Part shown: positions 11,405 to 64,000 of the stretch, in pieces | How the letters are laid out: each line of letters begins with the position of its first letter | Numbering within the stretch: position 1 is the stretch's first letter | Assembly (NCBI RefSeq): GCF_026571515.1 | Contig: NW_026866038.1 | Span: 62,001 to 126,000, forward strand | DNA from: Ruditapes philippinarum | Lineage: Eukaryota | DNA: 64,000 nucleotides | Reading direction: 5' to 3' | Position numbers and translations under genes: made by a program | The notes under the pieces: generated by a model | The model's input: the letters and a program-made list of their open reading frames with translations, nothing else | The model's database searches: none | What the model was told of the DNA's origin: nothing

Positions 11405-11560
11405 TGTCGTCGTTGTGACCTTTTTGATTGTTGCAATTCTGTTGAATAGTTGTTTTTATATTTGCATATCCTGATATCGGGTATCGGAATTAAAACTATC
11501 GCCATAAATGCACTGGCAAAAGTATGAAAACCTTATTTTTTGATCATGAACTATATATTA
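11405..11560 (+). pseudogene. Orphan 3' UTR remnant of a deleted acidic repeat-protein gene
   Basis: CGTCGTTGTGACCTTTTTGATT...ATATCCTGATATCGGGTATCGGAATTAAAACT...GCCATAAATGCACTGGCAAAAGTAT matches the sequence just after the stop codons of gene A (36090-36240) and gene B (47597-47735). No coding exons lie upstream. Confidence 0.8.
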
Positions 11561-11769
11561 ATTAACATTCATCAAGAAATTCGATCCTTTAATTTTGCAT
11601 TACCATAAGATGTATAGTCTTAAATCATAAACAGGTTCATTTTCATGAATAGAATGCTTAATTTCTTATTGTACTTAATTAATTAGTGTTATATTCATGT
11701 ATGTTTAACTTGACCATTGCAGTGCAGTACTCTGTCATTAACATCGCAGTTTCTTAATATGCTGTCATG

Positions 11770-12240
11770 TTTGACCACCGCACGATTGTATCACAGTGTT
11801 TCACTATCGCACGATCGCATCATTGTGATTTCATCTTCGCACGGTCGCTCCATAGTGTTTCGCAATTGCACGATCGCATTAATTTGTTTCATCATCGGAC
11901 GATCTCACCTTACTGTTTCACCATCGCATGGTGCCATCATAGTTTTTCACTATGGCACGACCGCAACATCTCACGACCGCATCTTAGTGTTTCATTATAG
12001 CACATTTGCATCAAAGTGTTTCCCTGTCGCACGACCGCATCATATTGTTTCACGATGACATTATGTTTCCCCATCGCACAATCGCATCATAGCGTTTCAC
12101 TATCATGCAATCGTGATTTAACCATCGTTCTGTAGCGTTTTCATCATCGTGTAATCCTACTATTGTGTTTCCATCATCGCAGCATTTTAAATCGTGAGTT
12201 AAAGCAAATAAAAATGCCACGATTGTCGTAACAGAACACC
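11770..12240. repeat. Degenerate ~29-bp minisatellite (ATCGCACGACCGCATCATAGTGTTTCACT), unit 1 copy
   Basis: Tandem degenerate copies; equivalent arrays at 36520-37075 and 48010-48350. Confidence 0.85.
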
Positions 12241-13440
12241 GTACTCGCTACGCTACATATAAATGTGTAACGATAACATTATTTGTCTAGAAAGAGTTTT
12301 TGTAAATTGTAAGCTTTTGATTCACATTATACTTATCTTACTTTCAGATTTGATTCATTATTCTAAAATCGAGCATTTTGGAGAGAAGAGAGTCAAACAG
12401 GAAAACTATTCAATTTACTTGTAGAAACTTTTATTCTGATTAAAAATTAAAGACACTAAACTATTTTAATAGTTTATACCATCAGAGTCATTATCGGAGC
12501 AGGTTAATGTCCCTACACTTAAATCATTTAAAATTCTATCATTTTTATCTTTCTTCCCTCTCCCCCCTACCGAGCACCGACTCGGCACTACTTGAAATTC
12601 ACTATAATTAAGGATTAGGAAAATGCATGACAAAAGTGACAATCTAAAACACAAGACATACTAAATTGAGATATACCTATATAGTTACATTCTTTTTTAA
12701 ATAATATCTTTAGATATAACTTATTATCTTTCATTAAGAAGTCGCAATGTCATTTCTTGTTCGATCATTAGATATAAGACAGAGGTGCATTTATAGGCTT
12801 GCGTTCTTTTTTCTTTATAAGAATATATTCATCAGACAACTTGATGGTGCTTATAGGCATCCGTACTTGTTCTGTTGTCATTAAATACATTCATAAGACG
12901 AAATTACCATGAAAATGTTTTCCTATAGCATTAAGATAACAACAAGCCTAAGGGGACGCCGCCGACACCGCCGACAAAAGTAACCCCTATATCTTTCAAG
13001 GCGACACAAAAATGTGCAAAAAAGCAACCCTAACTGCGATAGTCCCGCGGTAAAAATGTGGTGATAAATACTGCAAAATCAATCATTCATTACAATTTAT
13101 ATGTTAATTATTACTTGAATCGTAAACATTTTTTGCTTTCCTAAAAATCTCGGTGCATTTTTCTTGAGGTTGTTTTTCTTGAGTTCTTTAGCTAGTATGG
13201 AGGCATGCAGCTTTTATACACGTAGAAAATTGGACAGTAACCCTCTACTATTGCACAAACATGTAATAAATAACGAAACATGGACTGGTAGTGTACGTAT
13301 CATCATATCGAATGTTCAGGGTTCCCGCCTTTATATTTTTCCCGCCATTCTAACATCAATTCCCAAAACAATGTTAAATATTGTGGCATTTTTCCGACAC
13401 CAGATACATGTTATTATCGCGGTTATTCTGTTTATTATTG

Positions 13441-23000: not shown

Positions 23001-23979
23001 AAGCCCTCTGTCTTGATGCGGTTGTTTTTTCTTTAACTTCAGACCGTTTGTAAGGTTCTGAAGCCCCAAGCTTTGAGGATTTTACTATGCCTCCTCATTC
23101 CACTGTTATAACATTTGAACCTGTAAATTGGGCCTTCGAGCAGTCTAAAGACCTAAATATTTCAAAAGTTATTTCTATTTTGCAGTACGGTTCTCCCAAA
23201 AGGGGAGGAATATACCCAAAATGGCAAAATCGTTACTTTGTGATATGTGACGTTTGATTACTTGTATTGAAATAGGTGTTCTCTACTGTACTGCAACAGT
23301 AGATGGTGAGCCCGTCAGACAATTGATTTTGCCTGCTTCTCATCAGACCATTGCCTTTCAAGGTGTCTATGACCAGTTTGGTCATGCAGGGCATGAGAAA
23401 TCTCTTTGGCTTGCTCGACAACGTTTCTATTGGCCAGGGATGGAAGTTGATTTCAAGAGAATGATTAACTTATGCAAGTCTTGTGTCTGTGGGAAAACTC
23501 CTCAAAATTCAGCGGCTGAACTCGTACCCATTCAAACTTCAAGGCCAATGCAACTTGTTTGCATGGACTTTCTCAAGTTAGAGAAGTGCATAAGTGGGTA
23601 CGAGGATGTCTTAGTCATAACAGATCATTTTACTCGTTACGCTAATGCTATCCCCTGCCGAAACCAGAAAGCCACAACCACGGCGCGAGCCTTGTATGAG
23701 CATTTCATCATTCACTATTCCTTCCCAGAGCAGCTTCATTCTGACCAGGGTCGTAATTTCGAGAGCAAGGTGATAAAAGAGCAAGCCAATGTCAGGAAAA
23801 CAGGGACAACACCATTTCACACAATGGGTAATCCATCTGCAGAACGCTTCAATAGAACCCTTAATCGCATGCTACGTACCCTGACAGATGACCACAAAAC
23901 AAGTTGGGCTGATTATGTTCTTCCTCTCTGCCAAGCATACAATGCTACTCCTGAACTGGATTCTCACCCTACTTCTTGA
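20037..23979 (+). pseudogene. Gypsy gag-pol remnants
   Basis: PNMA-like gag (KIPPFSGDEP...FYEWRHEV); protease (LIDTDSMVST, VILGTN); RT (VLVRKKDGTLRFCLDFRMLN, LRSGYW, LIDDI); RNase H (HIDACSTGLGAVL, NYPAHKLEFMALKW, TDNNP); integrase (GHAG...FYWPGM...CKSC, MDF, HSDQGRNFES, AERFNRTL). Confidence 0.92.
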
Positions 23980-30250: not shown

Positions 30251-33200
30251 TCACATGTCTTGATTTTCGCATATGTATTGCAGAACATTACTGTTGCAAT
30301 GCCAATCGGCCCATCTCCCCTTACTGTCGTCTTTTCCGTTCAATGTACCACAGTTTTCATTTTGTTTAAAATTATCAGGTTGATGTGCAATCCAGTTTGA
30401 ATATCCAGTTTCTGAAATGGGAGTTTTTGTCTCCATCCATACCCAGACGCCTTCTTCTTGTATATCACTGAGCGCTATCCAGTAGTTTTCTATTGATATG
30501 TTATTTAGCCAATTAAAGTAATCATATACTAAAGACTCGATCGCCGCTGTGCTATACTAAATTACTTAAATTGTCTGATTTACCATTCATTACTCTTTGA
30601 CAATTATTACTGTTCAAAGAAAGTTATAAGCCCTATCTATGTATAAAATTAACTTACCAAAAGATACAAAACAGCTGATTCCTCTTATAAAAAAATAATT
30701 ATACATCTACTTATGTAAAAATGTAATAGCCTCATAAAAACAAATAATCAATAATATTTTCATTCAAAACGATAATTTGTATCATAACACGGTCATCAAA
30801 TTAACCTAATTAGCTATGTTAGTATAATTAATACGATTTGAAATTATGATAACATTCGCTATAAAGAAAGGGACGACAAAAAAGATATAAATTTCACTAA
30901 CCATTAAACCTCATCGCCATAGAAGCAAGAAACGCGTTCTCTGCAGCTGTCTCAATCTCTACTAATTTTCCTCCTAAAATGTGACACATATTCTGAAATG
31001 GAAACGCAGAAAAACATTATATGATAATTCAACATAAATTCATCATAATTAAATATTGGGTGTAATATTACAAAGGGGTTTGTAGCTGTACCAGAACTCT
31101 ATATTAGGGTCAGTTATGACGAAAATTAGGTCCAGACCGAAAAAACATGTGACAACCCTTATATATAGACAAGGGTTCCAACTCCAAATAAACACATTTT
31201 TCGCCATTAGCTTAATGAGAAGCTAATTCCTTCTCCATTTTTCAAGCAAATTATATATTTTTATGTGTACATGTAGCATTCTCATTGTACTTTCAAGAAA
31301 TGATAGCAACTTGTCCCTTTAACCATGCATATAAAAACATGTCGGACACAAACCTAACCGAAAACGACTTTTTTTGCTTAGTCCACCTAGAAGTCGCAAC
31401 ATTATAAACAACGTGGTTTATCCCGTAAAAAAATTTACAATAATGAATACGGGAAGCAAAGGCTTGAATTCAATAAAAAAGACTATTTTGCAAAACATAA
31501 ATTTATGATTACCTGTAATTGTTTCGACAGTCAACCACGCAATCGGTTGTTTTCTTTCACTTGCTATTTTTCTCCGAGAACAGCCATTCGCCTGTCACCA
31601 GCATCTGATGCATTGACCAATCAGAACTCCCGTAGTATAATATTTCTATCCTAAACGTGACAAGCGAATGGCCGTTCTCGAAGAAAAAAGGGCAAGTGAA
31701 AGAAAAAACCGATTACGGTGTTTGGGTCTGGACCTAGTTTGGGGTCACAACTGACCCTTATATAGAGTCCTGGAACCGTTACAACCCCCTTTGTAATATT
31801 ATGAACGAATGCAGACTGCTTCATAAACGATTGTATATATGGAGGCTGCACAGTCGAGCGTATAAAGGTTCGTTCCTGTTTTAAGCGACGTGACATAGGG
31901 CGAGATACGATACGGAATAATGGAAAATAACGTGAGTTCGAGCTAGTTTGTTTAAAATATTTGTTGTATGTTGTATTTTGTTGTGTTCGAAAAAGATAGT
32001 CATGCGCAGCAAAGATATAATGGTGTATAATGATCAAAAAAGAAGAATATATTACCTAGTAAGGAAAACGTTATGAATGCCAGATGCAATTTGACATACT
32101 TTTAAATAGATGTATTGAAACAGATACTTGTTCAGTTATGTCATTAACGTGTTTACTATTAATATTTATAATAAATATTTAGAAACATTGATGAAATAAA
32201 TGCATATTTTCATTTTCGTATTTTCAATGTGAAATTTTAATTTTCACAACAGCGAAACATATTTTCTGTATTTTCAATAGTGTCTTGCGGAAGTACTTTC
32301 TCCTACATTCTACTAATACACACATTTTAATAGGAGGGGTCTTTAAAATTGTAATGTCGAAAAGGAGAAAAAATATGTATAATAAACTGAAAATTCAAGC
32401 CTTTTTTAAAACTAAAGAGGATCATCAAACAACCATTCATACATAGTTTCATCAAAATCAACCCAATAGTTAAGGGGGATAAGTTGTTTAAAGAATTTTC
32501 AGATATAAGTTCTGATAGCCTTATGGTTTAGCAGACGAGAATAATAATTTGAATTATTATTATAGACGATCATCCAAGGACCATTCATTTTTATTTTCAT
32601 CAAAATCTACCCAATAGTTTTCCTGTAATAAAGAAAGACAAAGGAACTTTGAATAATAACTGAAAAAGTCATATAATAAAATAGTTATTGCATAATTACT
32701 TATTTGAATTTCCAAATCTATTGACCTTTCTTATGTGAAATTTACCTCATTATCATATAATAATTATAAAACATACCACAGCACTTGACCAATCCTCCTG
32801 GTCGTGACTAAAGTGATAACATGAATTACCATGATGCATCCATCCGTTTGGACAAGACGCATCTAAAATAAATATATATAATTATGGTCATGTACAACTT
32901 GTCAATTTAGTGTATGTCCCTGAAACATCTAAAATAACAATGAAGTAATATTTGTTTCATTGGGAACCATACTATTTACGTTAACCATTCTCCTTTTTAC
33001 TTATTTGATAGCTTTATTTCATTTTATAAAGTAATTACTGTAATTTACATTACATTTTTGAGTGTTTTTAAAATATTTGGAGGGGCCAAATATTTGTCTT
33101 TTGTTGTAGATCACCATCTTCTCTTACGTTCTCCTCGAACAAGAAACTAAAGAATTCTATGGGGTTTTTTAAAAAAAGAAAGAAAAAAACATTGATATAT

Positions 33201-34427: not shown

Positions 34428-34490
34428 TATAAATATTTAACAACGTTAGCTTCATTTTAACTTTGACTTTCAACAGCAAGGAAGGAAAAG
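34428..34490 (+). promoter_or_regulatory. TATA box, Inr-like TCATT and non-coding exon 1 of gene A
   Basis: TATAAAT at 34428, TCATTT at 34452, donor AAG|GTGAGT at 34490/34491. Conserved with 45834..45896. Confidence 0.75.
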
Positions 34491-34834
34491 GTGAGTATGT
34501 TATATTATTACTTAATGTGTAGATTATATACAAGATATTTGTTAGTTTTTTTTTTTAAAGTTACCTTAAAAAAGAAGAAAAAAGAACTAAAAAACTGAAA
34601 ATGTTTTATTTAGTTTTTAGCGCTGGTGAATTTAGAATTCGTATAAGATATGGTTCACATTCTTTATAAACAAGCACATTTGTATTTTGTGGAAATATAA
34701 TTGTTATTAATGAAAATCATTAATCTCTGAATGATATTTTATTATTGAAAAGATATTATTTTTGTTTATCGCTAGATTATGCCAATCACACTGTTTTCCA
34801 AAACTTTATTTTATCTTGTTGGTTTCCAGCGAAA

Positions 34835-36061
34835 ATGATGACGTCATCAAATGTGCACGTTGTATTGCTTGCCACGGCAACGCTTGTAAGTTTTGCTTGT
34901 GCTGTAGAGAATTCCACCCAAAAGCAGATAGGTGTTTTAAAAAACACATATTTCAACCATGTGTCCATTTTCTACACTGAAGTTTGAAAAATATCTTTTA
35001 CTTAACCATTTGTTGCTGTTAACTTTTCAATTATTTGTTGTTTTTGATCTTTAAAATATTTGTTCGATGTAAGTGTTATGTGAAAACTAAACAATATTTT
35101 TACAATAAATATAACGAACAACCAAGTAGGGATTCTTTATCTATTTACTGACTCAAACGTCTAAGGCCGCTCAAGGAAAATTATGTTACGGTTATGAGGT
35201 CCAATCCTTTATTGCAAGGTCTATAAACTCAGTTCAAAATCTTGCCATCGAGGTTAATATGTTTTGCCCAACAAATGTAACTCCACAAAAGTTGGAAGCA
35301 AAGTTTACGACGTTCGTATGTATCACATCACATATGTTCTAGAACATGGATTGTTGATAACGTTATCTTAAATTCGATAAAAACCAACATTAGCCGTTCT
35401 AAAATAACACCCAACGCAACACATAAGTCTCAAAAGGCGTAGTTAATGTTGCTGATATGCTGAAGGAATTGAAAAAGTTTACATTTGTTTCTTGTCTTTC
35501 TTGAAGGGATTTAGCGATAGCCTCACGAAAACACAAGACAGACTCGAAAAGTTTAATCCTTTTGACCGTTTCAAAAAATGGCCTTTCCGTAACTTTCGCA
35601 ATGAGGATGGAGGCGGAGGTGATTTTCATTACCACAAAGTTAAAGGAGATGGGACGGTTCGTAACTATCGCGTGGAGGACGGAGGTCTAGGGGACAGATA
35701 CTATCACGAGGTCGACGCAGATGGGAACGTTCGTAACTACCATGTCGAAGACGGAGGTCAGGGTGACCGAATGTACCACGAATTCGAGGCAGATGGGAAC
35801 GTTAGAAACTACAATGTCGAAGACGGAGGTCAGGGTGACATGACTTTTCATGAAGTCGACGAATATGGTAACGTTCGTAACTACTATGTTGAAGACGGAG
35901 GTGAAGGTGACAGATGCTACCACGAAGTCGAAGGTGACGGGAGTCCATTTCGTGGTAATTATTATTACAACTATGTACATGGAGGTAGACACCGTTTCTT
36001 TCACAGCGAGAGCAGCTCCTCCGAGTCTATGGATTGGGATGATTTTCTTTTCGACTTGTAA
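34835..36061 (+). CDS. Secreted acidic 24-aa-repeat protein A (5 repeats), unrecognised family
   Basis: Exon 2 from ATG 34835 encodes a hydrophobic leader. Exon 3 (35507..36061, acceptor TTTCTTGAAG) encodes GFSDSLTKTQ..., 5 x (VRNYxVEDGGxGDxxYHEVDxDGN) and ...SESSSSESMDWDDFLFDL*. The donor equivalent to gene B's is AT rather than GT at 34928; an in-frame GTAAGT at 34886 is the alternative. Confidence 0.8.
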
Positions 36062-36519
36062 GCAATTTGTTCACTGTGGGGTATTTTGGCGTCGTTGTGG
36101 CCTTTTTTATTCTGATATTTGCACGGTTGCATTTCTGTTAACTAGTCGGATCTTTTATTACATTTGTTTTTACATTTACATATCCTGATATCGGGTATCG
36201 AAATTAAACTCATCGCCATAAATTCACTGGCAAAAGTATTAAAAAACCCTACCATTTGAGAAATATATTCAACAATATTCATCAAGAAATTCGATTTAAT
36301 TTCGCATTACCATAAAATGTATAGTCTTAAATCATAACATAATGACAATATTTATTTTTTTATCAGGTTCCCTTTCATAAATAGAATGCTTGATTCTTAT
36401 TGAACATAATGAATTAGTAACATATTCATGTATATATAACTTGACCTAGTTAAAAAGCATTGCACTGAGTTACAATCTGTATTATGTCATTAACATCGCG
36501 GTTTCACAATATGCTGTAA

Positions 36520-37075
36520 TGTTTGACCATCACACGATTGAATCACAGTCTGTCACCTTTCAGGATCACACCATAGTATTTTCGCATCATTGTGATTTCA
36601 TCTTCGCACGGTCGCACATAGTGTTTCGCTATAGCACGATCGCACCTAAGTATTTCACCATTGCATGGTGCCATCATTGTTTTTCACCATCGCATGTTGC
36701 CATCATAGTATTTCACCATCGCATGAAGGCTCACAGTGTTTTACCATCGCATGGACGCACCTTAGTATTTCACTATCGCATGACCGCATCATAGTGTTTC
36801 ACTATTGCACGACCTTATAGTGTTTCATTATCGCACAACCGCATGATAGTGTTTCACTATCTCACGACCGCATCATAATGTTTCATGATCACATCAAATT
36901 GTTTCCCCATCGTACGATGGCGTTTCGCTAACATGCAATCGTGTTTTGACCATCGCTTTCATTATCTTGTACTCCTACTATTGTGTTTCCATTATCGCAG
37001 CATTTTGAATCGTGAGTTAGGTAAATTTAAGCAAAATAAAAAGCCACGATTTATATCGTAACAGAACTCCATACT
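36520..37075. repeat. ~29-bp minisatellite, unit 2 copy
   Basis: Same motif as 11770..12240. Confidence 0.85.
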
Positions 37076-38105
37076 AGCTTCGCCCCATCCTATTCTGAAT
37101 ACATATTTGTATAGAGAAGTTTTTGTAAATTGTACGAGTAAGCTTTCGATAAACATTATGCTAATCCTACTTTCAGATTTGATTCATTGTTCTGAAATCG
37201 AGCATACTGGAGAAACGAAAGCGGCAGAAAAACTATTCAGTCTACTTGTAGAAACTGTTATTCTGATTAAAAAATTAAAGACACTTCATTATGAATTTTT
37301 TCCCTTTTTTGTTATTCTATTGGTTTATACGATCGGAGGAGTAAACAACTGGTCAATATCGCCACACTTAAATTATTTGAAAATATGAGCTGTCGTCCCT
37401 TTGTCATCAACCAAGCACCGACTTAGCAATATTTGAATTTCACTATATAATTAAGTATTAGAAAAAGATATAACAAAATCTAAAATGCGTCCGTACCAAA
37501 CATGACATATAGTCTAAATCGTGCTAAATTGAGACATGTATATAGTTACATGTACATTCATTTTCTTTTAGAAATATTTACTTCAGAAATAACTTATTAT
37601 CTTTCATTAAGAAAAAAATCTGCAAACACAGTTATCCCTCGGAAACTTTAATCACAACAAAATTACATGAAAATTGCAGACTCGAGCGGTACTCAATTCT
37701 CAACACTTAATAGTGATAGCAGCAATGATCCCGAAGGAAGAAGTCGCAATGTCATCTCTTGTTCGATCGTTAGATAAATCTTTATAAGAATATATAGTCA
37801 TCAGACAACTTTGATGGTGCTCATAGGTCTCTTGTTCAGTTGTCATTAAATACATTCATAAGACAAAATTACTATGGAATGAAATAATTTGAAATAGGGC
37901 ATTGCACTAGCAATGAAAATTCATATGCAAAACAAATCTTTTTAAACAAACACAAAATTACCATGCAGGCGTTATCATTTAAAACATGTCTATAAACATA
38001 ATAAGAAAAGGGCACGTTAGCTTAACTGTTTACCACGCTAAATATCTTAAACCGATTTTTCAGTTCATTATTTTATGTGTATGTATTTGAGTTTATCTGT
38101 GATCC

Positions 38106-40799: not shown

Positions 40800-42881
40800 T
40801 CACGTGTCTTGTTTTTCGCATATGTATTGCAGAGTATCACTGCTACAATGCCAATCATTCCAGTGTCCATCATAGTTTATTCCAATCAATGTACCACAGT
40901 TTTCATTATTTTTCACATTATCAGGCGCACCTGGCATCCAGTTTGAATATCCAGTTTGTGACATTGGAGTATTGGTCTCCATCCATACCCAGACCCCTTC
41001 TTCTTGTATATCACTAAGAGCTATCCAGTAATTTTCTATGGATATGTAATTTAGCCAATTGAAGTAATTATACAATACAGACTCGATTGCCACTATGCTA
41101 TACTTAATGGCTATTATTGACTTATTTTGTAATTGAATAAATTCCATTCGCAGTTATTAGATATCTTACCCTTTGACAATTATTAGTGTTCAAACTTATC
41201 TAAAGCAGCTGAACACCCTGATAAAAGCCATTATACATGTACTAATATGAAAAATGAAATATCCTATTCAATACAAATAATCATTCTTTTCTTTCAAAAA
41301 TATAATTTGTGTGACAACACGGCCATCATATTAACATAATGAGCTATGTCAGTATGATTAATTATGTACGTCTTTGTTGAAAAAATGATAAAAAATATGA
41401 CCGAATATATATTCATTTCTTTTACCATTAAAGTTTATCGCCATAGACGCAAGGAAAGCGTTCTCTGCAGCTGTCTCGATTTCTACTAATGTTCCTCCTA
41501 AAATGTGACACATATTCTGAAATGGAAACGTAGACTTTACTAAATAAACGCGATATTAAAGCTTGATACATGTCTAATATTTGTTGGCCCCATCCCATAG
41601 CAATCCTTTTTTTCAGATTGTTTTTGCCGACATGATCACTACAAACGTCACAATTAATATATATTGACTGTTCGAGACAAAAAATTACAATCATTTACCA
41701 AAAGTTACCCAACATCTTATAAATATTTTATTACACTTTTTGTCGGAGATGCTCTTGACCTAATTTTCAGTAAAGTGAAACCACCTTCCATACCCAAATG
41801 AGTGATAAGTGATAACATACCATAGCGCTTGACCAGTCCTCCAGGTCGTGACTAAAATGATAACATGCATTATTGTGACGCATCCATCCGCTTGGACAAG
41901 ACGCATCTAAATGAATTAATACAATTACATGTCTGTTGTTGTTATTATATTTATCTTATGTACGATTTTGCATATTTAATTAAGTATGCCCTTAAAAGTG
42001 TTTTTAATTAATACTTAAGTAATATTTGTTTTCTTGCGAACCATTGTTAATGTTCGCTACTTGAGTATATTATTCCGTATTAGGTTAGGTGAGATTTTGT
42101 GATGGCAGTGTGTCTGTCGTCTGTAATTTGTCGTAATCCATAATAACTTAAAAGGACAGCTCCTCCTTAACCACTTGGTAGATTTATCTCTAACTTCACA
42201 GGAATAGTTTTTAGATGGTCATCTAAAAATAAATGGTTCAAGTCTGAATTTAAATATAGACTTCAAGATGAAATAATTGAAAATATTCTCCTCAAAAACT
42301 ACAATTCCCGGAACGTATATACATGACATGTAGCATCAATTTGTGGTCATGTAAATCATGAGGTTCACCCCGGCAAGAATTATTCCCAACCCGTTGTAGT
42401 CTAGACAATGTGTTTTTAAATTTTTTAAAGTTCTCCAGTTCTAGTAGTTCCTAGCGAACATCTACACACGTTTTAAAAATCATGCAGCTTGGGTAAAGAT
42501 GACAACCAAATGTGACATATTTACTGCCGTTTGCATTGGATAATTGTAACCTTTTGTAACTATGTATCTCAGATGAGCGATTATTGCCCTCTTGTTTGCT
42601 TACTTGATAAGTTTACCCTTTTTAAATAAAGTATCTTTTTAAATAAAGTAATATCTTTAATTTAGAAAATTAGATTAATATGGGAGGGAATGGTCATTTG
42701 TTTTGTCTTTAAATAGGTAACCAATCCCTTACGTTCTAAACGAGCAAAATATGCTTTGTTATTCTAAACAAAGTTTCATTGTTTCCGTACCTTGTTTTTT
42801 ATGCAAAGAAAAAAATCAAACAGACTTACCTAAACTCCAGAATAAAGAACATATAACCAATAAGATTTGAACTTTCCACAT
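40800..42881 (-). CDS. Perlucin-like secreted C-type lectin, copy 3 (4 coding exons, 154 aa)
   Basis: Exons complement(42830..42881, 41821..41906, 41426..41516, 40800..41035), GT-AG, 465 nt in frame. MWKVQILLVICSLFWSLDASCPSGWMRHNNACYHFSHDLEDWSSAMNMCHILGGTLVEIETAAENAFL...WIALSD...APDN...ENC...WNDWHC...YICEK. Confidence 0.93.
42060..42596 (-). mobile_element. Decayed pearl/Helentron-like element in lectin-3 intron 1
   Basis: Ends CAGATGAGCGA...GCCCTCTTGTT, the reverse complement of the 28876 terminus. Microsatellite-like GTCTGTCGTCTG near the other end. Confidence 0.55.
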
Positions 42882-46244: not shown

Positions 46245-47564
46245 ATGGCGTCATCAAATGTGCTTGTTATGTTGCTTGCCATGGCAACGCTTGTGAATTT
46301 TACTTGTGCTGTAGAGAATTCAACCCAAAAACAGGTAGGTGTTTTAAAAAATGTTTCAACCATGAGTTCTTTTTCTTCACTGAAGTTTGGAGAATATCTT
46401 TTACTTTTACCATTTGTTGCTTTTAATTTCAAATATTTGTTATTTTTTATGTTTAAAATATTTGTTTGATGTTGGTGTAATTTGAAAACTAAATAATATT
46501 TTTGCAATAAATACGAACAACTAACAGACAAGTAACACTTCTGTATCTATCTACTGACATAACTATATCTTTTAACGGCTTAAGCCGATCATGAAAAATT
46601 ATGTAACGCGTACGAGTGTTCCAACCCATCTTTGCAAGGTCTTTAATCTCAGTTCAAGTTCTGGCCACCGAAGTACATATGTTTGCCCAACAAATGTCTC
46701 TTTTCAAAAGTTAGAAGCAAAATTTTCAAACTTCGTATGTATAACATTACATATGTTCTAGAAAACTGATTGTAATAACGTTTACATGAATTCGGTAAAA
46801 ACCAACATCAGCCGATCTAAAATAACACCCAATACCATACAAAGGTCTCAAAAAGCGTCAATGGTGTTGCTGGTGTTACAACGGTTAATGTTGAAGAAAT
46901 TGCTAAAGTTTAGATTTGTTTCTTATCTTTCTTAAAGGGAATCACCGACAGTCTCACGAAAACACAAGACAGACTCGAAAAGTTTAATCCTTTTGACCGT
47001 TTCAAAAAATGGCCTTTCCGTAACTTTCACAATGAGGATGGAGGCGGAGGTGATTTTCATTACCACAAAGTTAAAGGAGATGGGACGGTTCGTAACTATC
47101 GCGTTGAGGACGGAGGTCTTGGGGACAGATTCTACCACGAAGTAGATGGAGATGGGAACATTCGAAACTATGGTGTTGAGGACGGAGGTGAAGGTGACAT
47201 ATATTACCACGAAATCGATGAAGATGGGACTGTTCGTAACTACCATGTCGAAGACGGAGGTCAGGGTGACAGAGTGTACCAAGAAGTCGACGCAGATGGG
47301 AACGTTAGAAACTACAAGGTCGAAGACGGAGGCCAGGGTGACATGACATTTCATGAAGTCGACGAATATGGGAACGTTCGTAACTACCATGTTGAAGACG
47401 GAGGTGAAGGTGACAGGTACTACCACGAAGTCGAAGGTGACGGGAGTCCATTTCGTAGAAATTATTATTACAACAATGTACATGGAGGTAGAAACCGTTT
47501 CTATGACAGTGAAAGCAGCTCCTCCGAGTCTATGGATTGGGATGATTTTCTATTCGACTTGTAA
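46245..47564 (+). CDS. Secreted acidic 24-aa-repeat protein B (6 repeats, 238 aa), unrecognised family
   Basis: join(46245..46334, 46938..47564), phase-0 GT-AG intron. MASSNVLVMLLAMATLVNFTCAVENSTQKQ|GITDSLTKTQDRLEKFNPFDRFKKWP, then 6 repeats, then PFRRNYYYNNVHGGRNRFYDSESSSSESMDWDDFLFDL*. Confidence 0.9.
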
Positions 47565-50779: not shown

Positions 50780-51277
50780 CAAAAACTATTGGCATCAAAA
50801 GTTCCTTAAAGTTTGCAAGTGCGCAAAAATCAGTCAAAGACCAACGAAATGGACTCTGAAGTGTCCTTATATGTAAATAATATCATTTTCACCATTGGCA
50901 CCAAACTTCCTGAAAAGTCTACGATTTCCCCAGAATCAGTCGCAGACAAACCAATGGATTCTGGAGGGTCCCTATATGTCAAAAATGTCATTATCTCAAT
51001 TGGTACCAAAATTCCTGAAAGTCAGCGAATGTCCCAAAATCAGTCGCAGACCAATCCAATAGACTCTGGAGGCTCCCTAGATGCCAAAAATTTTATCATC
51101 TCAATTGGAACCAAAAGTTTCTGAAAGTCTTCGACTATCCCAGAATCAGTTGCAACCAACGAAAAGGACTTTTAAGGGATACTAGAACAAAAAATAGATT
51201 TTAAATCAATTGGCACCAAAATTCCTTGAAGTCTTCAACGATGTTAGAAACAGTAGCAGACCAGTGAAATAGATCCT
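50780..51277. repeat. Degenerate 105-bp tandem repeat (~5 copies)
   Basis: ATTGG(C/T/A)ACCAAAA-like motif at about 50788, 50894, 50999, 51104 and 51209. Confidence 0.85.
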
Positions 51278-53384: not shown

Positions 53385-53450
53385 TATATAAAAACTGACC
53401 GGTTAATTGTTTATCATATACTTATATTGTAAAAAGCACAAAATTGCAGG
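53385..53450 (+). promoter_or_regulatory. TATA box and probable non-coding exon 1 of gene C
   Basis: TATATAAAAA at 53385, TCA at 53414, donor CAGG|GTGCGT at 53450/53451, acceptor TCTAG ending at 53560. Confidence 0.6.
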
Positions 53451-53569
53451 GTGCGTGCTGATTATTATATGCATTCTATAATTTGATTTATAGGAAAAGC
53501 CATAAACTTCCAGATTTTCATTTTATTTCATATTTTTATATATTCTTTGCTGGTGTCTAGGTTGCAAAA

Positions 53570-54686
53570 ATGAAGTTAACAACTTTGATTGCAGTCGGCG
53601 TTCTTGTGGCAATGTTTGCAAGCGTCTCTTGGGCAGATTCCTCGTCCTCGGAAGAGGTAAGCATAATTATGTCTTATCAATCTTTTTATTCTATATAAAC
53701 AAGTATAGGATTTTTGAATTAGAAAAAAAAACTAGAAAAGAAACAAATAATTTGTTTGTTTGATTGGTGTTTACGCAAATTTTATATGGTCATATCTCGG
53801 AAAGCGATTCACTTAAAGGGTTTTCCCGGATAATTGACCAGTAATTAACAATTGCTTCTTATGTGACCGGCTACTTATCCCACATGGTTTTTGAATCAGC
53901 TGTGAGAGACAAGTGTCTGTGGAAAACATTCGTCTCTATCGAGGACCCCTTGATTAAAAGAAAGTTTTATGTTGTCCGTATTGAGCTTAGAGAGATAAAA
54001 AGAACAAATAAACACGCACAAAACATAACATAACAACGTTTAATACAAGTTCGTGATCTTAACTGTGGTCGCCAACAACAAGTCACTAAACGTTAAAATT
54101 TCACCAGGAATGCTTGAGTTTGACATCTGAGGAATATATACACCAAATATCGATGATTTTTCACAGGATATTTATGGTAAAACTTGAAAAAAGAAGGAAT
54201 TATAATTTATACATAAACAATAAACTTGTTGCGTTTACCTCAACAAATAACGAAATAAATGATGGATCTAATAGATCTAATATAATACATTTAAGTATAT
54301 ACCGTGGATACTCATAGGCAAGAATGGTTACGCATTATTTTTCTTAAGAAAAAACTACATGCTAAAACCAATAATGCAATAAGATTAAACTCAATACATG
54401 TTGTAGTTCATTTTTTATATCATTATTAAACATCTTGATTTCATTTTTAAAACAGAGGGATCGCTATTACGAAGGCTATGGGCGAGGTTATCCCTCAGAG
54501 AACATCCAACAGGGTGGCCGTTACTTTGGCGACAGAGACCTTGACCGTCGCCACCACTTCCATCGTAATCCTTTTCGAGAGGACCGTCACTACTACAATG
54601 TGCACGGAGGGAGACCTAGATACGTGAATAGGGACAGCAGCGATTCAGCATCTATTGACTGGGATGAGTTTCTCATAGCTTTGTAA
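53570..54686 (+). CDS. Small secreted R/Y/G/H-rich protein C, candidate phosphoprotein (105 aa), repeat-less paralogue of A/B
   Basis: join(53570..53656, 54456..54686), phase-0 GTAAGC...AACAG intron. MKLTTLIAVGVLVAMFASVSWADSSSSEE|RDRYYEGYGRGYPSENIQQGGRYFGDRDLDRRHHFHRNPFREDRHYYNVHGGRPRYVNRDSSDSASIDWDEFLIAL*. The last 38 aa align without gaps to the A/B tail. Confidence 0.88.
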
Positions 54687-54959
54687 GTCTCTTATTTTCC
54701 AGATATTTTTATATTCGCAACAGTAATTTGTAACCGGTAGGTAATATGTACCAAACGTTTCATAGCGCAAAGAGATATTGCCAATTTTGCCATACCTACC
54801 AACCTACCTACCGACCGACCTAGCTTCTTTTGGTTGCCAATGCTCTATTTTTCTTTTCTTTTTTCTTTTGTTGTCAGTGCTCTAGAGGGTTCTCCTAAGT
54901 CCCATAATTTCAATATCTGCTTTCATATTTGCTTTAAACTGCTTTCATATTTGCTTTAA

Positions 54960-55335
54960 TTTAAAAAGGAAAATGTTGCGTATATTGTTTGATAGACTTG
55001 TGCTGATAGCACGTTTTTATGGAATTAGAAGCATAAATTTTATATACATGTTTTCTACACACGGTAAGCTTCTAAGAGGTTGTTTTAGTGCTTTAAAGTC
55101 ATTATATCATTTTGAGTAAGATTACATGGCATGTATACAGATTGGTTTTATGATTCATGTGGTTTTCGTCAAGGATGTGCCTTATCGCCTTTGTTATTTT
55201 ATCTATTTTGAAATGTTCTAACTGTACAGATAAAAGCTACCAGTAGAGGTGTTCACATATACACCGTTTAAGGTTGTATTTCCTTATATGCCGATGATGT
55301 TGTGATAATTTCTGAGAAAGAATCAGATCTGCAAT
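54960..55335 (+). mobile_element. LINE reverse-transcriptase fragment
   Basis: Decayed translation LKSLY...VRLHGMYTDWF...GFRQGCALSPLLF...LYADDVVIISEKESDLQ. Confidence 0.8.
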
Positions 55336-55539
55336 ATTTATGAAGTATGAAGAAGTGAAATAGTTTTTAAATCATCATCTGTGGCAAGATCAACACAACT
55401 CTATGAACAGGCTCAATCAAAGAGCCTGCAACATGTTCAATTTTGTCGTTTTGAGCGTTCTTTGGGGATTCCGTTTTTCTCTGTTTTACACCTGGTCAAC
55501 ATAGTTTAAATATTGTCAAACAGTACTCTTATATCAGTA

Positions 55540-56178
55540 TTCGTTCAGATAAGCATTTAGGTTTTGGGAAAACTGCCAAATGTGTTGAAAAAATTCGTTC
55601 AGATGAGCATTTAGGTTTTGGGAAAACTGCCAAATGTGTTGAAAAAAATCGTTCAGATAATCATTTAGGTTTTGGGAAAACTGCCAAATGTGTTGAAAAA
55701 ATTCGTTCAGATGAGCATTTAGGTTTTGGGAAAACTGCCAAATGTGTTGAAAAAAATTCGTTCAGAGAAGCATTTAGGTTTTGGGAAAACTGCCAAATGT
55801 ATTGAAAAAATTCGTTCAGATGAGCATTTAGGTTTGGGAAAACTGCCCAAATGTGTTGAAAAAATTCGTTCAGATAAGCATTTAGGTTTTGGGAAAACTG
55901 CCAAATGTGTTGAAAAAATTCGTTCAGATGAGCATTTAGGTTTTGGGAAAACTGCCAAATGTGTTGAAAAAATTCGTTCAGATAAGCATTTAGGTTTTGG
56001 GAAAACTGCCAAATGTGTTGAAAAAATTCGTTCAGATGAGCATTTAGGTTTTGGGAAACTGCCAAATGTGTTGAAAAAATTCGTTCAGATAAGCATTTAG
56101 GTTTTGGGAAAACTGCCAAATGTGTTGAAAAAATTCGTTCAGATGAGCATTTAGGTTTTGGGAAAACTGCCAAATGTT
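55540..56178. repeat. 54-bp minisatellite (~12 copies) with dimeric alternation
   Basis: Unit TTCGTTCAGAT(A/G)AGCATTTAGGTTTTGGGAAAACTGCCAAATGTGTTGAAAAAA. Confidence 0.95.
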
Positions 56179-57798
56179 TTGCACAAAGTGCACAAAGATA
56201 ATAGGCCAAATCGTGCTGTCGTAAAAATTGGTTTAACCTTAAAAGGCATTCCCTCGAGACATTCTGACTCCGCTATCAAAAATCATAGAGCGCAACCAAA
56301 TTAATGAATATTGTAGGTAAAAACTTGATAATACATGTTTGTAAATGCAAAAAATGGAATAAATTCAAAAAATAATTTTTTTAAATTATGTGAAAATTTA
56401 CAAAAATTTTTATAAATTAAAAAATTTTAAAGGTATTAATAAAAGGAAAATCAAGTGTCAATCATATGGGGTTAAAAGTCTATTTGGAAAGGGGGATTTT
56501 AAAGCAAGTTTTAAAAGAAAAGGGTTTTAAAAAAAATCATAAAATTTTTTTCTAAAAACAAAAAAAAATAAAAAAATCCCTAAAAAAAAACAAACACAAA
56601 ATTAAAATGTTGCAGGTTTGGGGTTACTGGGCCCGTTTTGGGGGGTAGAAAGTGAGTTTCGTCAAAGCTCAAAACGGGTTAAAAGGATTCAAAAACAAAA
56701 TTTTGAAAACCCGTAAATTTTTACGATTTTTGCCGCAAGGGGGACTAATTAAAAAGGGGGCCCTTTCGTAAAAATGGGATAATTACTGGTTAGTTAATCA
56801 GAAAACCGGTAATGTGGACCAACCGCTGAGATTTGACCAAAAAATGTATTAAAATCGCTATAAAAACAGGAAAAAAAGAATTAACAAAAATAAAAATCTT
56901 ATTTCTTTTCAGGTTAAATGACCTATTTTAGAAGAAACAGAAAGAAGAGGTGCTCTCCAATGAGTGTCGGGATATGTAACAATAATCCAAACTGACAACA
57001 TGATTTTCTAACTGACAACACTATTTTTCAACTGACAACATTATTTTCAACGTTACAACATGTTTTAAAATAAACTATTTTACAATTTCAAAGTCAATAA
57101 AATATTTAAATCCTAAAATCTAGTTATTTAATATAGGAAAATACGCTATACGACGTAATCCTATCCTATGCAAACCACCTGCGAAATTAAATAGATGATA
57201 TCATAATCATGCACAAGGACCGAAGCCAGGACATGTCATCTGGAAAAGGACTTTGTTTAAAACCCAAAACGATAAACGATACTCCTCCCTAAAAGGGTGT
57301 TGTTTTACAAACGTTTACTTATCCAGGCAAGTTGCTTATAATAACTATCACATGTAACAGAAAATAGTAATCTGGGGTCTCCAAGATATTCGCACACTTT
57401 GGACATTTGACCTTGAATGTTAAGGTAATTTATGGATGAAGGCCAAGGTAAGTCTGGTCTACTAAAAGGCCTTGTCCCACAAATATGATCAAGGTAACGT
57501 GGACGGCAACGGCAACGCCGACATGACTGTAACAAAACCTCTATTTATTTATTTATTATTAAAGGTCAAGCTAAAAATGACCCAAAATTGAAAAGCGTTG
57601 CAACGTTTTTAAATCCAATCGGACTAAGAATAGCACATAAAAAATTTCTTCAGTTCATTTTTTGTAATATTTCTTAATTATCTTTTGCGTATCTTTCTAG
57701 CAGATCTACGAAAGTAATTTATATTTTGATATAGGCTTTGGACCTCAGAGGTGCTTTAAATACAGTTACTGTAAAAAAACGATGTTATGATAAATCAC

Positions 57799-60700
57799 TG
57801 TGATAAAACTAAAATTTAAAATATTGAAATAGACAAAATATTTCTCTGTATATTTTTACAAATTATGATTAATGTCTTACATTAACTTTCTATCTGGGTT
57901 TTACAAATATGGCGGAAGCTTCGGGGATTATAGGGGATAAAAACATGTGTAAATCCTGTATTTCCAAAGCATTACAGGGGATTAGCGAGGGTTACTGGCG
58001 ACAGTTTATCAGGCCGGTATATTACGTATATATTTCGGTTGAAAAATTGAGTTTGAAGTGTCGATAACAAAGTGGGATTTATTGGTAAATTTTCCTAAAA
58101 AGTAATCGATGAGGTAAATCCCAATTTTCTTTTTTTAAACGTATATATAAGTTCTCATTTAAGAAGGACTGCATTATAACTGATGCCAACCCCGACCACC
58201 TCCTTCTCTTTAAAAAAAAGCCCACTAGCAAATCAAAACTCATTGTTAAATTATCATGACAGATTTTTAGAAAAGTTCAATAACTGCTTTGCTATTAGAA
58301 TGGATTACTTTTTTGGTATTTTCCCTTAGATAAATATCCTAAAACAAGTAATTATCTGATAACAAAAATCTGCTGGTGAGGCCTTTCATTTTTCTACAAA
58401 ATGACAAATCAAAAGTCATATTTACTAGATAAAGTTGAAAAGAAATTATATTAAAATATGTTTAATACAATTTGGTATGAGTTAATACAGTGAGGAAAGA
58501 TTGATAAGTATTGCTTGATATTTTGAAGCTGTCTTTTCTCATTTTACTTGTGTGTATGTCTTAGAAATATTATTCAACCATCTTTTAAATTAAAGAAATA
58601 CATCTGATTGGTCAGTTTGTCTGAAAATAAATGGCTTTGACAATTTGTGTAGAATTGGAGTAGCGTTTATTGAACGCCGCTTTCCTTGTTGATCTTGTTT
58701 ATCATATTTTATAAAGGAGCCGTTATGCAAGGGAGGCAAACTAAAGCGTAAAATTTTCCAAAAGCAAAACAGTTATGAATCTTTGTCTTGTCGAGTTATG
58801 TAATACAATGAAAGTTGATTTACTGCATATTGTTGTGAAAAAAATGCAACAAAATTATGTCATCGCAACGAGTTTTGCAATAAGTTATAAATAATAGCAA
58901 AACTCGTTTTATTGCAAAACCGGTTGTAACAAGGCTGCGATAAAAATTAAATTTAAAATATTGAAATAGACAAAATATTTCTCTGTATATTTTTACAAAT
59001 TATGATTAATGTCTTACATTAACTTTCTATCTGGGTTTTACAAATATGGCGGAAGCTTCGGGGATTATAGGGGATAAAAACATGTGTAAATCCTGTATTT
59101 CCAAAGCATTACAGGGGATTAGCGAGGGTTACTGGCGACAGTTTATCAGGCCGGTATATAACGTATATATTTCGGCTAGAAAAATTGAGTTTGAAGTGTC
59201 GATAACAAAGTGGGATTTATTGGTAAATTTTTCTAAAAAGTAATCGATGAGGTAAATCCCAATTTTCTTTTTTTAAACGTATATATAAGTTCTCATTTAA
59301 GAAGGACTGCATTATAACTGATGCCAACCCCGACCACCTCCTTCTCTTTAAAAAAAAGCCCACTAGCAAATCAAAACTCATTGTTAAATTATCATGACAG
59401 ATTTTTAGAAAAGTTCAATAACTGCTTTGCTATTAGAATGGATTACTTTTTTGGTATTTTCCCTTAGATAATTATTCTAAAACACGAAATTAACTGATAA
59501 CAAAAATCTGCTTGTGATGCCTTTCATTTTTCTACAAATTTACAAATAAAAAATCATATTTACTAGATAAAGTTCAAAAAAAAATATATAAAAAAATGTT
59601 TAATACAATTTGGTATGAGTTAATACAGTGAGGAAAGATTGATAAGTATTGCTTGATATTTTGAAGCTGTCTTTTCTCATTTTACTTGTGTGTATGTCTT
59701 AGAAATATTATTCAACCATCTTTTAAATTAAAGAAATACATCTGATTGGTCAGTTTGTCTGAAAATAAATGGCTTTGACAATTTGTGTAGAATTGGAGTA
59801 GCGTTTATTGAACGCCGCTTTCCTTGTTGATCTTGTTTATCATATTTTATAAAGGAGCCGTTATGCAAGGGAGGCAAACTAAAGCGTAAAATTTTCCAAA
59901 AGCAAAACAGTTATGAATCTTTGTCTTGTCGAGTTATGTAATACAATGAAAGTTGATTTACTGCATATTGTTGTGAAAAAATGCAACAAAATTATGTCAT
60001 CGCAACGAGTTTTGCAATAAGTTATAAATAATAGCAAAACTCGTTTTATTGCAAAACCGTTGTAACAAGGCTGCGATAAAAATTAAATTTAAAATATTGA
60101 AATAGACAAAATATTTCTCTGTATATTTTTACAAATTATGATTAATGTCTTACATTAACTTTCTATCTGGGTTTTACAAATATGGCGGAAGCTTCGGGGA
60201 TTATAGGGGATAAAAACATGTGTAAATCCTGTATTTCCAAAGCATTACAGGGGATTAGCGAGGGTTACTGGCGACAGTTTATCAGGCCGGTATATAACGT
60301 ATATATTTCGGCTAGAAAAATTGAGTTTGAAGTGTCGATAACAAAGTGGGATTTATTGGTAAATTTTTCTAAAAAGTAATCGATGATGTAAATCCCAATT
60401 TTCTTTTTTTAAACGTATATTCATAAGTTCTCATTTAAGAAGGACTGCATTATAACTGATGCCCAATCCCTCCCCCCCCCTCCCCCCAAATCCCCCTCTT
60501 AAAAAAACCCCTAGGGAAATCAAAAAATCTGATAAAAATCATTGTTAAATTTTCATGAAATAATTTTTGGGAAAAATTCAATAACTGCTTTTCTTTTAAA
60601 AAATGGAATTTTACTTTTTTTGGGGATTTTCCCTTTTGATAAATATCCTAAAAAAACCGGGAATTATCTGATAACAAAAAAATCGCTAGTGGGGCCTAGC

Positions 60701-62130
60701 ATTTTTCTCAAATTGACCCAATTTAAAAGTCAATTAAATAGTAAAGGTTTAAAAAAAATTATATAAAAATTGTTTTTTACAATTTAATATTTTTTAGCCA
60801 TTGGGGTTTTAAAATTTCATTTTGGGGAAGTTGATAAGTAGTGATTTGTACATGTAAATAGATACTTTGAAACTGCCTTTTCTCATTGTACTTATGTGTA
60901 TTAAAAAATCATCTTTTTTAAGTAAAGAAATAAATCTGAATGGTAAGTTTGTCTTAAAATAAATGGATTTTTACAATTGTGTAGAATGTTTTATAATGGG
61001 AGTCATTATGAAGGGGAGGCAAACTAAACTGTAAAATTTTCCAAAAGCTAAACAGTTATGAATCCTTGTCTGTTGAATTATGTAATACAATGAAAGTTGA
61101 TTTACGACACATAAAATTTCAATTGTTTTTTTTTTTTTAAACATGATTCTTGGTTTAAGTTTTCTTCCATTTTTTAAAATTTATAATGTTGGAGAAAATA
61201 AAAATAAATGGATCGAAAATTTGAAAAATTAATAACAATAACTTGAAAGAATTGTGGATAAACATAAATCACACTTTCTTATCGACATATCAAATCTTCA
61301 TTTTTCCGGTGTGTCTTATGCGTATCTTTCTGTTTTGTGTGCCCAGGCTATCTAGAGAGATATTCAAATTTTGCTTTTAGGCTTTTGGACCTTAGTGGGG
61401 AATTGTTAAATTTACAATTACTTTTAATTTACCACTGCATATTTATTCAACCGACACAAACAAACGGATGACGGATAAGAGACTTTATATAAAATAAAAC
61501 TTTTAATATGGAAATAGAAAAAAATTTTCTCAGCATATTTTTAAAAATTTATGAAATTTAAGTTCCCTTACATTAACTATTCTATCTGGATTTTTACCAA
61601 ATATGGGCGAAAGCTTCGGCGATTATAGGGGATTTAAAAAAAAAAAATTTTCTTTGTGTATATTCCCCCCCGGGGGGGGGGGGGGCCAACTTTTTTTCCC
61701 AAAGCAATACAGGGATTAGCAAGGGTTACTGCGCGACAGTTTACAAAGGATTGGTTATTATAACTTATAATTTTTTGAAAAAATGGTTTTGAATAGTTTT
61801 TGGGATAACAAAGTTCGAGTTATTGGGGTTTAATTTTTTCTTATAGAAAAAGAATAGATATGGTCTTTGAAACGTAATTTTTAAGATGCTCAATTTTAAG
61901 AAGGACTGTTAACAAATGAATGCCAACTTCAACAGGGCCCCCGACCCCCCCTTCATCTCTTTAAAAAAAATGACAGCTAGCAAACCAATACTCATTGACA
62001 TGTTTAATAAAAGTTCAATAACTGCTTTGCTATTAGAAAATATTTCTTTTTTGGGGATTTTCCCCTTTGATAATTAATTTTACCCAATCCCTAAGTCTAT
62101 TTAGTAGATAAAAGCTGGAAAAAAAAAAAT
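57799..62130. repeat. ~1.14-kb tandem repeat (two clean copies, then two progressively degraded)
   Basis: AAATATGGCGGAAGCTTCGGGGATTATAGGGG near 57905, 59042 and 60178, with a variant near 61599. Confidence 0.9.
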
Positions 62131-64000
62131 ATATTGAAATATTTTTGAATACCAATTTTTTTGGAACATTGTTTTAAAATAAGCCATGAGTTAAAAAATG
62201 TTTGGGGCCGTTAAAAAGTCGGGAACCCCGGGTAAAAAGTCGCACTTGCCGCTAAATGTCGCACCAAATTTACCTTTAAAGTCTCAACCGCCGTAAAAGT
62301 CGCAAAACATTTCCGTTAAAATTTGCAATGGTTTTAACGGGGTTTAAAAGTCCGGGGACGAATTTCCCCTACCGGTTTAAAAAGTCGGGAACATACCGTT
62401 AAAAAAGTGCCCAAAAATTTTAAATTCTTGTTAAAAAAAAGTTTAAAATAGAATTTTATTCTTTTTAAAATTCTCATAGTTTTTTTTAATTATAATTGCC
62501 ATTTCACAAAAATTATCTTTTTTCTTACTTGGTTTTCTTTAATTACTATTTTTAATTGATCTTTAGGCTAGGGAAAAAAAATTGAACTAAAATTTTCAAA
62601 AGATAAGGGATTTTTCTTTTGTTTAACATTTTCATTTGTTTAAACCCTGATTGACAAAAGAAAAAAAGGTATTAAAGGTATTTTCACTTTTTCAGGGGGG
62701 TTTGGGGGGTTTTTAAATAATTTCATTTATTTTTTCCCCGAAACCCACCGGGTTTACTTTTAACGTGGTTTTTGTTGTTAACTAATTTATCATATGGGGG
62801 GCAACATCAAAAGGCAGATAATCCCAGTTTTTATTTTTTCCATGTTATTCCCCTTAATTTTTTTTTCTCTAAATTTTTTCAAATTTTTAAATATTTTACT
62901 TTTTAAAAAATTAAAAAATTATTTTTTTATGAAAGACTAATGCATTTCTAAAGGAAACAGATGACCCTGAAAGGTTTTTTTTTCTAAAATATTCTCCCCC
63001 TTTTTAAAATATTTTCAAAAAAAAAAAACAAAAAAAAAAAAAAAAAAAAAGAAAAAAAAACAAAAAAAAAAAACATCCCAAATATTAACTTCAACGTGAA
63101 ATTTGATTTAATATCAAGGCAAATTTTTTATTTTCAACAGCAACGGCAAATACGAAAAGACGTGAAAAACATAGTATGAAATGCACCCGTCAAATACGAA
63201 ATGACGCAAAAATTCATAGAGTACCTTATCAATGTAAGTATCGTATCCGCATCGGTGCTAGATATTGAGCGATTTTACGTATAATATGCACCGCGAACTT
63301 TTTGAAGCATGCCAGCCGATAGAGCGACGTGACTTGTACTCGTACCTTGTTGTTCATTTTCCCAGGTGGCCCCAACTTAAAATATGATCAGTCTTTCGAT
63401 AATTACTTAAAATCGAGTCCCGTATATGGTGTGCTAACACACTTTGGCACGTTAAAGAAAGGGGAACTCTTCTGAAATCGAGGATCTTTCTATATCTGTA
63501 ACTGCATTTGCCAAACCACTATTATCGCTTTGACATCATGTGCAAGTGATATTTCACTGCCAAGTTCTCTTATACTATAGAAAAAATTCTCAGTAAACTA
63601 TCATATAATAAGAATACAAATAATTGATTAAGCTCATATTGGCCTTGCTGTTTGGAGAAGATAATATCTCCCTGCAGTTTGCCATACCGGGGCTTAGACC
63701 TTCCCGCGCAAGGCACAATACCTGCTACAAAAAATGTACGACCTTTTGTACGTCAGGCGTAATCGTGTGGACGTGCCCACGTTTAACCGGAAGAATGACA
63801 AATTTAAATTTAAAGTATCAATGTATATCATGTATTATCTTTGTCGTGTATGTTTAGCATCCTATAGACTTTTGTATCATAAACTAATATTTATAATTAT
63901 ATAAGAATGATCTATATATTTCAAGTTATAAATTTGTAATCGTAAATTAACCAATATTCTGGACATAATGCTGATCCTTTATGTGATTTCTTCGTTATCG

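Follow-up and report, generated by a model that had tools for sequence, protein, structure and literature searches.

SCPP genes open with a noncoding exon 1, which is followed by a signal-peptide exon. In bivalves, the phosphoprotein Mfp-5 begins with a short Ser/Glu motif. The SCPPs are described as descendants of SPARCL1 in bony vertebrates (PMC10888740), with introns that are "virtually all" phase 0 (PMC6732285). The account of histatins in PMC12155162 defines these peptides by His richness, an ATCUN motif, and HExxH and reports that a phosphorylated S-x-E at position 2 of histatin-1 promotes adsorption to hydroxyapatite. Mfp-5 is an 8.9-kDa protein with 4.8 His, 19.6 Gly, and 4.8 phosphoserine per 100 residues, and its phosphoserine has been compared with statherin and osteopontin (PMC5132118), so the literature already likens a bivalve phosphoprotein to statherin. 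The kinase Fam20C is expressed in the mantle of molluscs and is high at the pearl-oyster mantle edge (PMC5824888), and 16 of 46 phosphorylation sites reported from limpet shell fit S-x-E-like motifs (PMC4094399). The myticalins of Mytilus are described as having a noncoding exon 1, a short intron right before the ATG, and an exon 2 that carries the signal and mature peptide, with three exons and a phase-1 intron in all (PMC5577615). According to the same source, their signal peptide is conserved, their middle is Arg/Tyr rich and variable with a pI over 11 and over 10% Arg in the mature region, and a Lys-Arg site precedes a conserved anionic C-terminal extension.

We analyzed a 64,000-nucleotide window of Manila clam (Ruditapes philippinarum) DNA. 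A preliminary description of this window had likened one of its genes, gene C, to SCPP genes of the statherin/histatin type, without claiming homology. The sequence bears out part of the gene structure that it proposed. The 29-codon exon that starts at the ATG at 53570 ends S-W-A-D-S-S-S-S-E-E and abuts a GTAAGC donor at 53657, the first coding intron is phase 0, and the acceptor (AG|54456) keeps the frame into a body that carries both of the motifs first noted there. Four of 24 sequencing runs were examined for RNA support, two as assembled contigs (X1 and X2) and two as raw reads; X2 is RNA, and X1 was taken as RNA by guess. The 53656/54456 junction, which had been proposed as a check on the gene and which skips 799 nucleotides between GT and AG, was present in both contigs, that is, in two of the four runs. 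The signal exon had zero depth in the two raw-read RNA runs, of which ∼4% and ∼6% were sampled, which indicates that expression of gene C is confined to some libraries. A transcript that reads through the signal exon without splicing was considered and rejected, as it reaches a stop after 13 further codons.

The 3′ end of the gene differs from the one first described. Past 54684, both contigs diverge from the window, and the loose end of each corresponds to an exon at 56913 that is preceded by a good acceptor (TTTCAG). The supposed stop codon at 54684 to 54686 is part of a GTAAGT donor, and coding resumes at 56913. Joining 53570 to 53656, 54456 to 54682, and 56913 to 56931 gives exactly the NCBI protein of 110 amino acids, with intron phases 0 and 2; support for the 54682/56913 joint comes from the splice sites, the loose ends of both contigs, the matching NCBI model, and the paralogues, which are arranged alike. 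The NCBI entry is an uncharacterized R. philippinarum protein (LOC132731087, XP_060573181.1) in a cluster of one. We conclude that gene C is a genuine spliced Manila clam gene (Table 1). A 54-bp tandem array (55539 to 56181) lies inside the phase-2 intron, and the last exon, whose 3′ end is given approximately, has AATAAA at 57069 and 57096. The protein encoded by contig X1 departs from that of the window at residues 7, 43, and 55, and in the last exon one residue in both contigs differs from the window; these differences point to high allelic variation in the 110-residue protein.

A noncoding exon 1 of gene C is plausible from the TATA-to-donor spacing that it nearly shares with its paralogues A and B. 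Its start at 53415 is a guess, placed ∼30 nucleotides past the TATA box. The two RNA contigs start at 53447/53450 and keep 53451 to 53560 unspliced, and assembled contigs can drop a short 5′ exon.

Table 1. Positions of gene C, its paralogues, and neighboring features in the window
Feature	Position	Strand	Basis or remarks
TATA box of gene C (predicted)	53385..53392	+	66 nt to donor (GTGCGT) versus 63 nt in A and B (GTGAGT)
Candidate short noncoding exon 1	53415..53450	+	Paralogous TATA-donor spacing
Candidate 110-nt 5′UTR intron, GTGCGT..TAG	53451..53560	+	Retained in both RNA contigs
Signal-peptide exon	53561..53656	+	ATG 53570, predicted 22-aa signal, mature start D-S-S-S-S-E-E
799-nt phase-0 intron	53657..54455	+	Junction in X1 and X2 RNA contigs
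Body exon	54456..54682	+	Arg/Tyr/Gly/His segment, then YYNVHGGR, serine cluster, DWDxFL helix start
2,230-nt phase-2 intron, GTAAGT..TTTCAG	54683..56912	+	Contig ends and NCBI model
Last exon	56913..57101	+	Five more codons, stop 56929-56931
Paralogue B, LOC132731081, 243 aa	45834..48467	+	Sequence comparison and NCBI entry; TATA 45834, donor 45897, ATG 46245, body exon 46938-47560, last exon 48449
Paralogue A	34428..37195	+	Sequence comparison; TATA 34428, donor 34491, ATG 34835, body exon 35507-36057, last exon 37177
Remnant of fourth copy, reduced to its last intron and its last exon (12348)	11431..12366	+	Sequence comparison
Three C-type lectin genes	519-770, 30254-30556, 40803-41153	−	Pfam Lectin_C, E about 1e-10 to 1e-11
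B-box zinc-finger (TRIM-like) gene, long single ORF	14497-16210	−	
Two degenerate LTR-retrotransposon-like stretches	1390-6682, 19976-23976		ORF list, by eye

The signal peptide of gene C, judged by eye, has Lys2, a hydrophobic stretch at residues 6 to 17, and small residues at −3/−1, and the structural model places a helix at residues 3 to 22. From these features, the protein is probably secreted, with the signal cut after residue 22. The predicted mature protein has 88 residues, including 13 Arg (14.8%), 11 Asp (12.5%), 9 Ser, 8 Tyr (9.1%), 8 Gly (9.1%), 6 Glu, and 5 His (5.7%), and has a pI of 5.7 and a net charge of about −4; the earlier label of His rich was thus overstated. Charge is distributed in blocks, with an acidic head, a basic middle at residues 30 to 88 (pI 9.97, net +5, 13 Arg in 59 residues, or 22%), and an acidic tail (net −6). 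The S-x-E motif noted at the exon end is present twice, as S26-S-E28 and S27-E-E29, immediately ahead of the 53657 donor. When we shuffled mature C 100,000 times, 4.2% of the shuffles had an S-x-E within the first 8 residues and 48% had one anywhere. The S-x-E head is therefore mildly unusual against chance but not striking.

Neither HExxH, an N-terminal XXH (ATCUN), nor R-x-K/R-R occurs in C, and its sole dibasic site is RR60-61 in the middle of the body. The tail ends without an amidation signal, and no conserved cleavage site would release it. A neuropeptide precursor was considered and rejected, as the protein lacks repeated dibasic or amidation units. The AlphaFold2 model (whole-model mean pLDDT of 51.6) has a signal helix, a region at residues 35 to 94 with pLDDT below 50, and a tail helix at residues 98 to 109; the last block has a mean pLDDT of 75, and the tail helix is the only confidently modeled part of the mature protein. 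Mature C is predicted to be disordered over residues 35 to 94.

A tblastn search of the window with the body exon of gene C matched paralogue B at 47370 to 47561 (E = 1e-13) and paralogue A at 35867 to 36058 (E = 7e-11). The alignment of mature C with mature B scored 148, and the best of 2,000 shuffles scored 76. Identity between C and B is confined to the tail, where 23 of the last 44 residues are the same (52%). This family-conserved tail consists of YYNVHGGR, a serine cluster, and a DWDxFL..LF helix. A, B, and C have a common plan of four exons (counting the putative noncoding exon 1), intron phases 0 and 2, and the shared tail, and last exons of five codons lie at 37177 (A), 48449 (B), and 56913 (C), with an orphan at 12348. 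By sequence comparison, C is the short member of a tandem family with A and B, whose copies were counted within the 64-kb window. The tblastn search with the C body exon found no body exon at the fourth-copy remnant. The signal-exon donor of A (34925 to 34935) reads AT where B has GT, so A may be a pseudogene or contain an assembly error.

The body exons of A and B carry 24-residue acidic repeats rich in Gly, Asp, Glu, Tyr, and His that are absent from C, and B has a net charge of −25. The model of B (mean pLDDT of 40.7, low confidence) has a β-meander followed by the tail helix. The repeats of A and B are predicted, again with low confidence, to form a single-layer β-meander, and the Atlas model resembles MORN, RHS, and LESV-type sheets with a TM of about 0.5 to 0.6. 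No homologue was found, and these two proteins may outrank C in interest as mineral- or metal-templating proteins. The signal exons of A and B end V-E-N-S-T-Q-K-Q, with a phase-0 intron at the same place as in C and no serine cluster or S-x-E. Between C and B, the signal exons show no significant similarity, as 214 of 2,000 shuffles scored as high. The preliminary description had made conservation of the N-terminal serine cluster a test of its proposal, and this cluster is missing from A and B, the only relatives available. The statherin-like head is therefore private to C, and what the family conserves is the opposite, C-terminal end.

The search for relatives that had been suggested yielded the paralogues A and B and no orthologue among 1.84 billion representative proteins. 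A profile of the three tails (69 positions) against these representatives returned four proteins, namely, B, C, a clam-like fragment (P0003), and a repeat protein (P0004). P0003 is a fragment 84% identical to the repeats of B and runs into intron-like sequence, which marks it as clam-like DNA; this metagenome protein looks like another deleted copy of the family. P0004 was rejected on inspection as an unrelated repeat protein and a spurious match. The profile search found no relative outside clam-like sequences, although a profile of three sequences is weak and diverged venerid orthologues could escape it. In word-based searches, exon 3 (the body) of C matched only C, and the body of B matched only B among 1,952 candidates. 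A longer-protein search with the C tail scored none of three candidates and was insensitive, missing even B.

No Pfam family matched C at the cutoff; pancreatic-hormone (E = 0.37) and PknH matches fell below it and were rejected. No relative turned up in the PDB, and in the ESM Atlas the best feature score for C was 0.81, which is at chance level, with none of at least 0.9 and no usable feature match for B. Pattern scans gave 45 matches in prokaryote genomes, 600 in viral sequences, and 185 in metagenomes, none of which was confirmed. A search by accessions and two tail motifs found no paper naming C or B in the main text of CC-licensed PMC and bioRxiv articles; tables of clam shell or mucus proteomes may list C. 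The family is apparently undescribed and restricted to Ruditapes. With no Pfam, PDB, or Atlas match, the function proposed for C rests on composition.

Elsewhere in the window, the C-type lectin genes appear to have been co-duplicated head-to-head with the family copies, and A and B alternate with them. The LTR-retrotransposon-like stretches contain gag/pol/integrase-like frames with breaks, and the stretch at 1390 to 6682 is flanked by a 365-nucleotide identical direct repeat (1028 to 1392 and 7546 to 7910). A 105-bp tandem repeat at 50810 to 51233, just upstream of a 56-bp satellite, has a possibly coding open frame of 35-residue units that had no match in Pfam. From 57780 to 64000, tandem units of about 1,137 bp become progressively degraded and are accompanied by long stretches rich in homopolymers; the assembly looks to be of poor quality there and around 56300 to 56800.

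The reading of gene C that we favor, which we give an even chance of being correct, is that it encodes a secreted peptide, specific to its lineage, that forms part of the matrix or coating of shell, periostracum, or mucus and whose acidic head is likely phosphorylated. The protein combines several traits of the matrix-protein class: a signal peptide (judged by eye), biased composition, predicted disorder, and lineage restriction. Once the signal is removed behind residue 22, Ser26 and Ser27 and then the upstream serines would be phosphorylated by a Fam20C-type kinase of the Golgi, and the phosphorylated acidic head, private to C, could bind calcium or mineral, which is plausible by analogy with Fam20C-type S-x-E proteins. 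The Arg/Tyr/Gly/His middle might give cohesion through cation-π, metal, or Tyr cross-links, and the acidic amphipathic C-terminal helix common to A and B may be the family's assembly, sorting, or pro-piece element. The strongly acidic charge of B and its predicted repeat β-meander are easier to reconcile with a matrix protein than with a cationic antibiotic. Against the matrix reading count its basis in composition, the lack of an S-x-E head in A and B, and the ease with which S-x-E arises by chance. A conserved acidic tail with a variable middle is also typical of myticalin precursors, as PMC5577615 describes them. Those precursors suggest another role for C, as a linear antimicrobial precursor that releases its cationic Arg/Tyr/His middle, with the acidic head and tail as neutralizing pro-pieces. 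The described myticalin layout matches in the Arg/Tyr middle, the anionic tail, and, for the candidate upstream structure of C, exon 1 and the intron before the ATG (PMC5577615), and the Arg count and positive charge of the C body, the alternation of A and B with lectin genes, and the residue differences between the contigs and the window (X1 at 7, 43, and 55; both contigs in the last exon) are in keeping with it. However, C has no Lys-Arg before its tail, only RR60-61 as a dibasic site and no R-x-K/R-R, its body pI is lower than the myticalin value, its signal peptide is not conserved with that of B as it is among myticalins, its intron plan is unlike theirs, and B is strongly negative. On balance, we regard an antimicrobial precursor as unlikely.

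A soluble, convergent counterpart of statherin that inhibits mineral precipitation in extrapallial fluid or hemolymph through the phosphorylated head would account for D-S-S-S-S-E-E at the predicted mature start and for its two S-x-E sites, a placement infrequent among shuffles, and the reported effect of the phosphorylated S-x-E of histatin-1 on hydroxyapatite adsorption (PMC12155162) lends it some precedent. We think it distinctly improbable, as the paralogues conserve the tail and not the head, and the gene layout is not SCPP specific, with a second coding intron of phase 2. The restriction of C/B identity to the tail could instead mean that C works through its 44 conserved C-terminal residues, in signaling, sorting, or binding of partners such as the neighboring lectins, and that the rest is a fast-drifting spacer that remained when the A/B repeats were lost. 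Within the mature protein, only the tail helix is modeled with confidence, and all four copies retain the last exon as a separate unit, but no conserved cleavage site frees the tail, its end has no amidation signal, the pancreatic-hormone match is far below the cutoff, and the lectin adjacency may be passive co-duplication, with no lectin gene next to C; we consider this very improbable. A further reading, which we also hold to be distinctly improbable, is a modular clam family with a fixed C-terminal module and exchangeable fronts. A and B would carry an acidic β-meander mineral template, and C a newly gained phosphoserine head and cationic middle, with which C would have reached independently, in shell-forming fluid or mucus, a dual action like that of statherin and histatin, namely, control of mineral growth and antimicrobial fragments. 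If C does control CaCO3 growth and kill microbes, this would be a functional convergence with saliva peptides and would bear on shell disease in an aquaculture species. The gene model of C is corrected, an undescribed local family with a recognizable tail motif is identified, and this family offers a natural contrast between long acidic repeat proteins and a short peptide with a putative phosphorylated head.

In comparison with SCPPs, C is similarly small, secreted, and disordered by prediction, lies in a tandem cluster, and has an S-x-E at the mature N terminus, at an exon end before a phase-0 intron. It differs in the phase of its second coding intron and in having no Pfam or profile match to SCPP members, and these two differences indicate that C is not an SCPP, in line with the preliminary description. 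SCPPs diverge fast, so the clam origin of C argues more strongly against membership than the missing homology does. The evidence does not mark the SCPP-like gene layout claimed earlier as special: a phase-0 intron stands at this place in A and B too, without S-x-E, and the candidate upstream layout is also that of myticalins. On the sequence, what remains of the architectural likeness is a single phase-0 intron and a single motif; this likeness is superficial, and no convergence of gene architecture between C and SCPPs is shown. The likeness to histatins fares no better, since His makes up 5 of the 88 mature residues, the ATCUN and HExxH hallmarks are absent, the mature start is D-S-S, and the mature protein is net acidic.

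Molluscan proteins offer closer comparisons. C and the myticalins and modiocalins are cysteine-free, combine a variable middle rich in Arg and Tyr with an anionic C-terminal region that is conserved, and belong to multigene families with broken copies; the exon 1 layout also agrees if the candidate exon of C is real. Measured against the myticalin values with assumed cut sites, residues 30 to 88 exceed the Arg level (22% against 10%) and fall short of the pI (9.97 against 11). Unlike the myticalins and modiocalins, C has intron phases 0 and 2, lacks the Lys-Arg before the tail, shares neither a conserved signal with B nor sequence similarity with these peptides, and has acidic paralogues. Like Mfp-5, an example of the low-complexity matrix and adhesive proteins that molluscs secrete and that are restricted to single lineages, C is a protein of about 9 to 10 kDa in which Tyr, Gly, His, and basic residues are abundant. 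However, no sequence similarity between the two was found, and C has a DWDxFL tail helix, is net acidic and Arg rather than Lys rich, and contains ∼9% Tyr compared with ∼30% Dopa in Mfp-5. Mineral-binding proteins with phosphorylated S-x-E have already been described from molluscs, and C is a mollusc protein of an ordinary kind.
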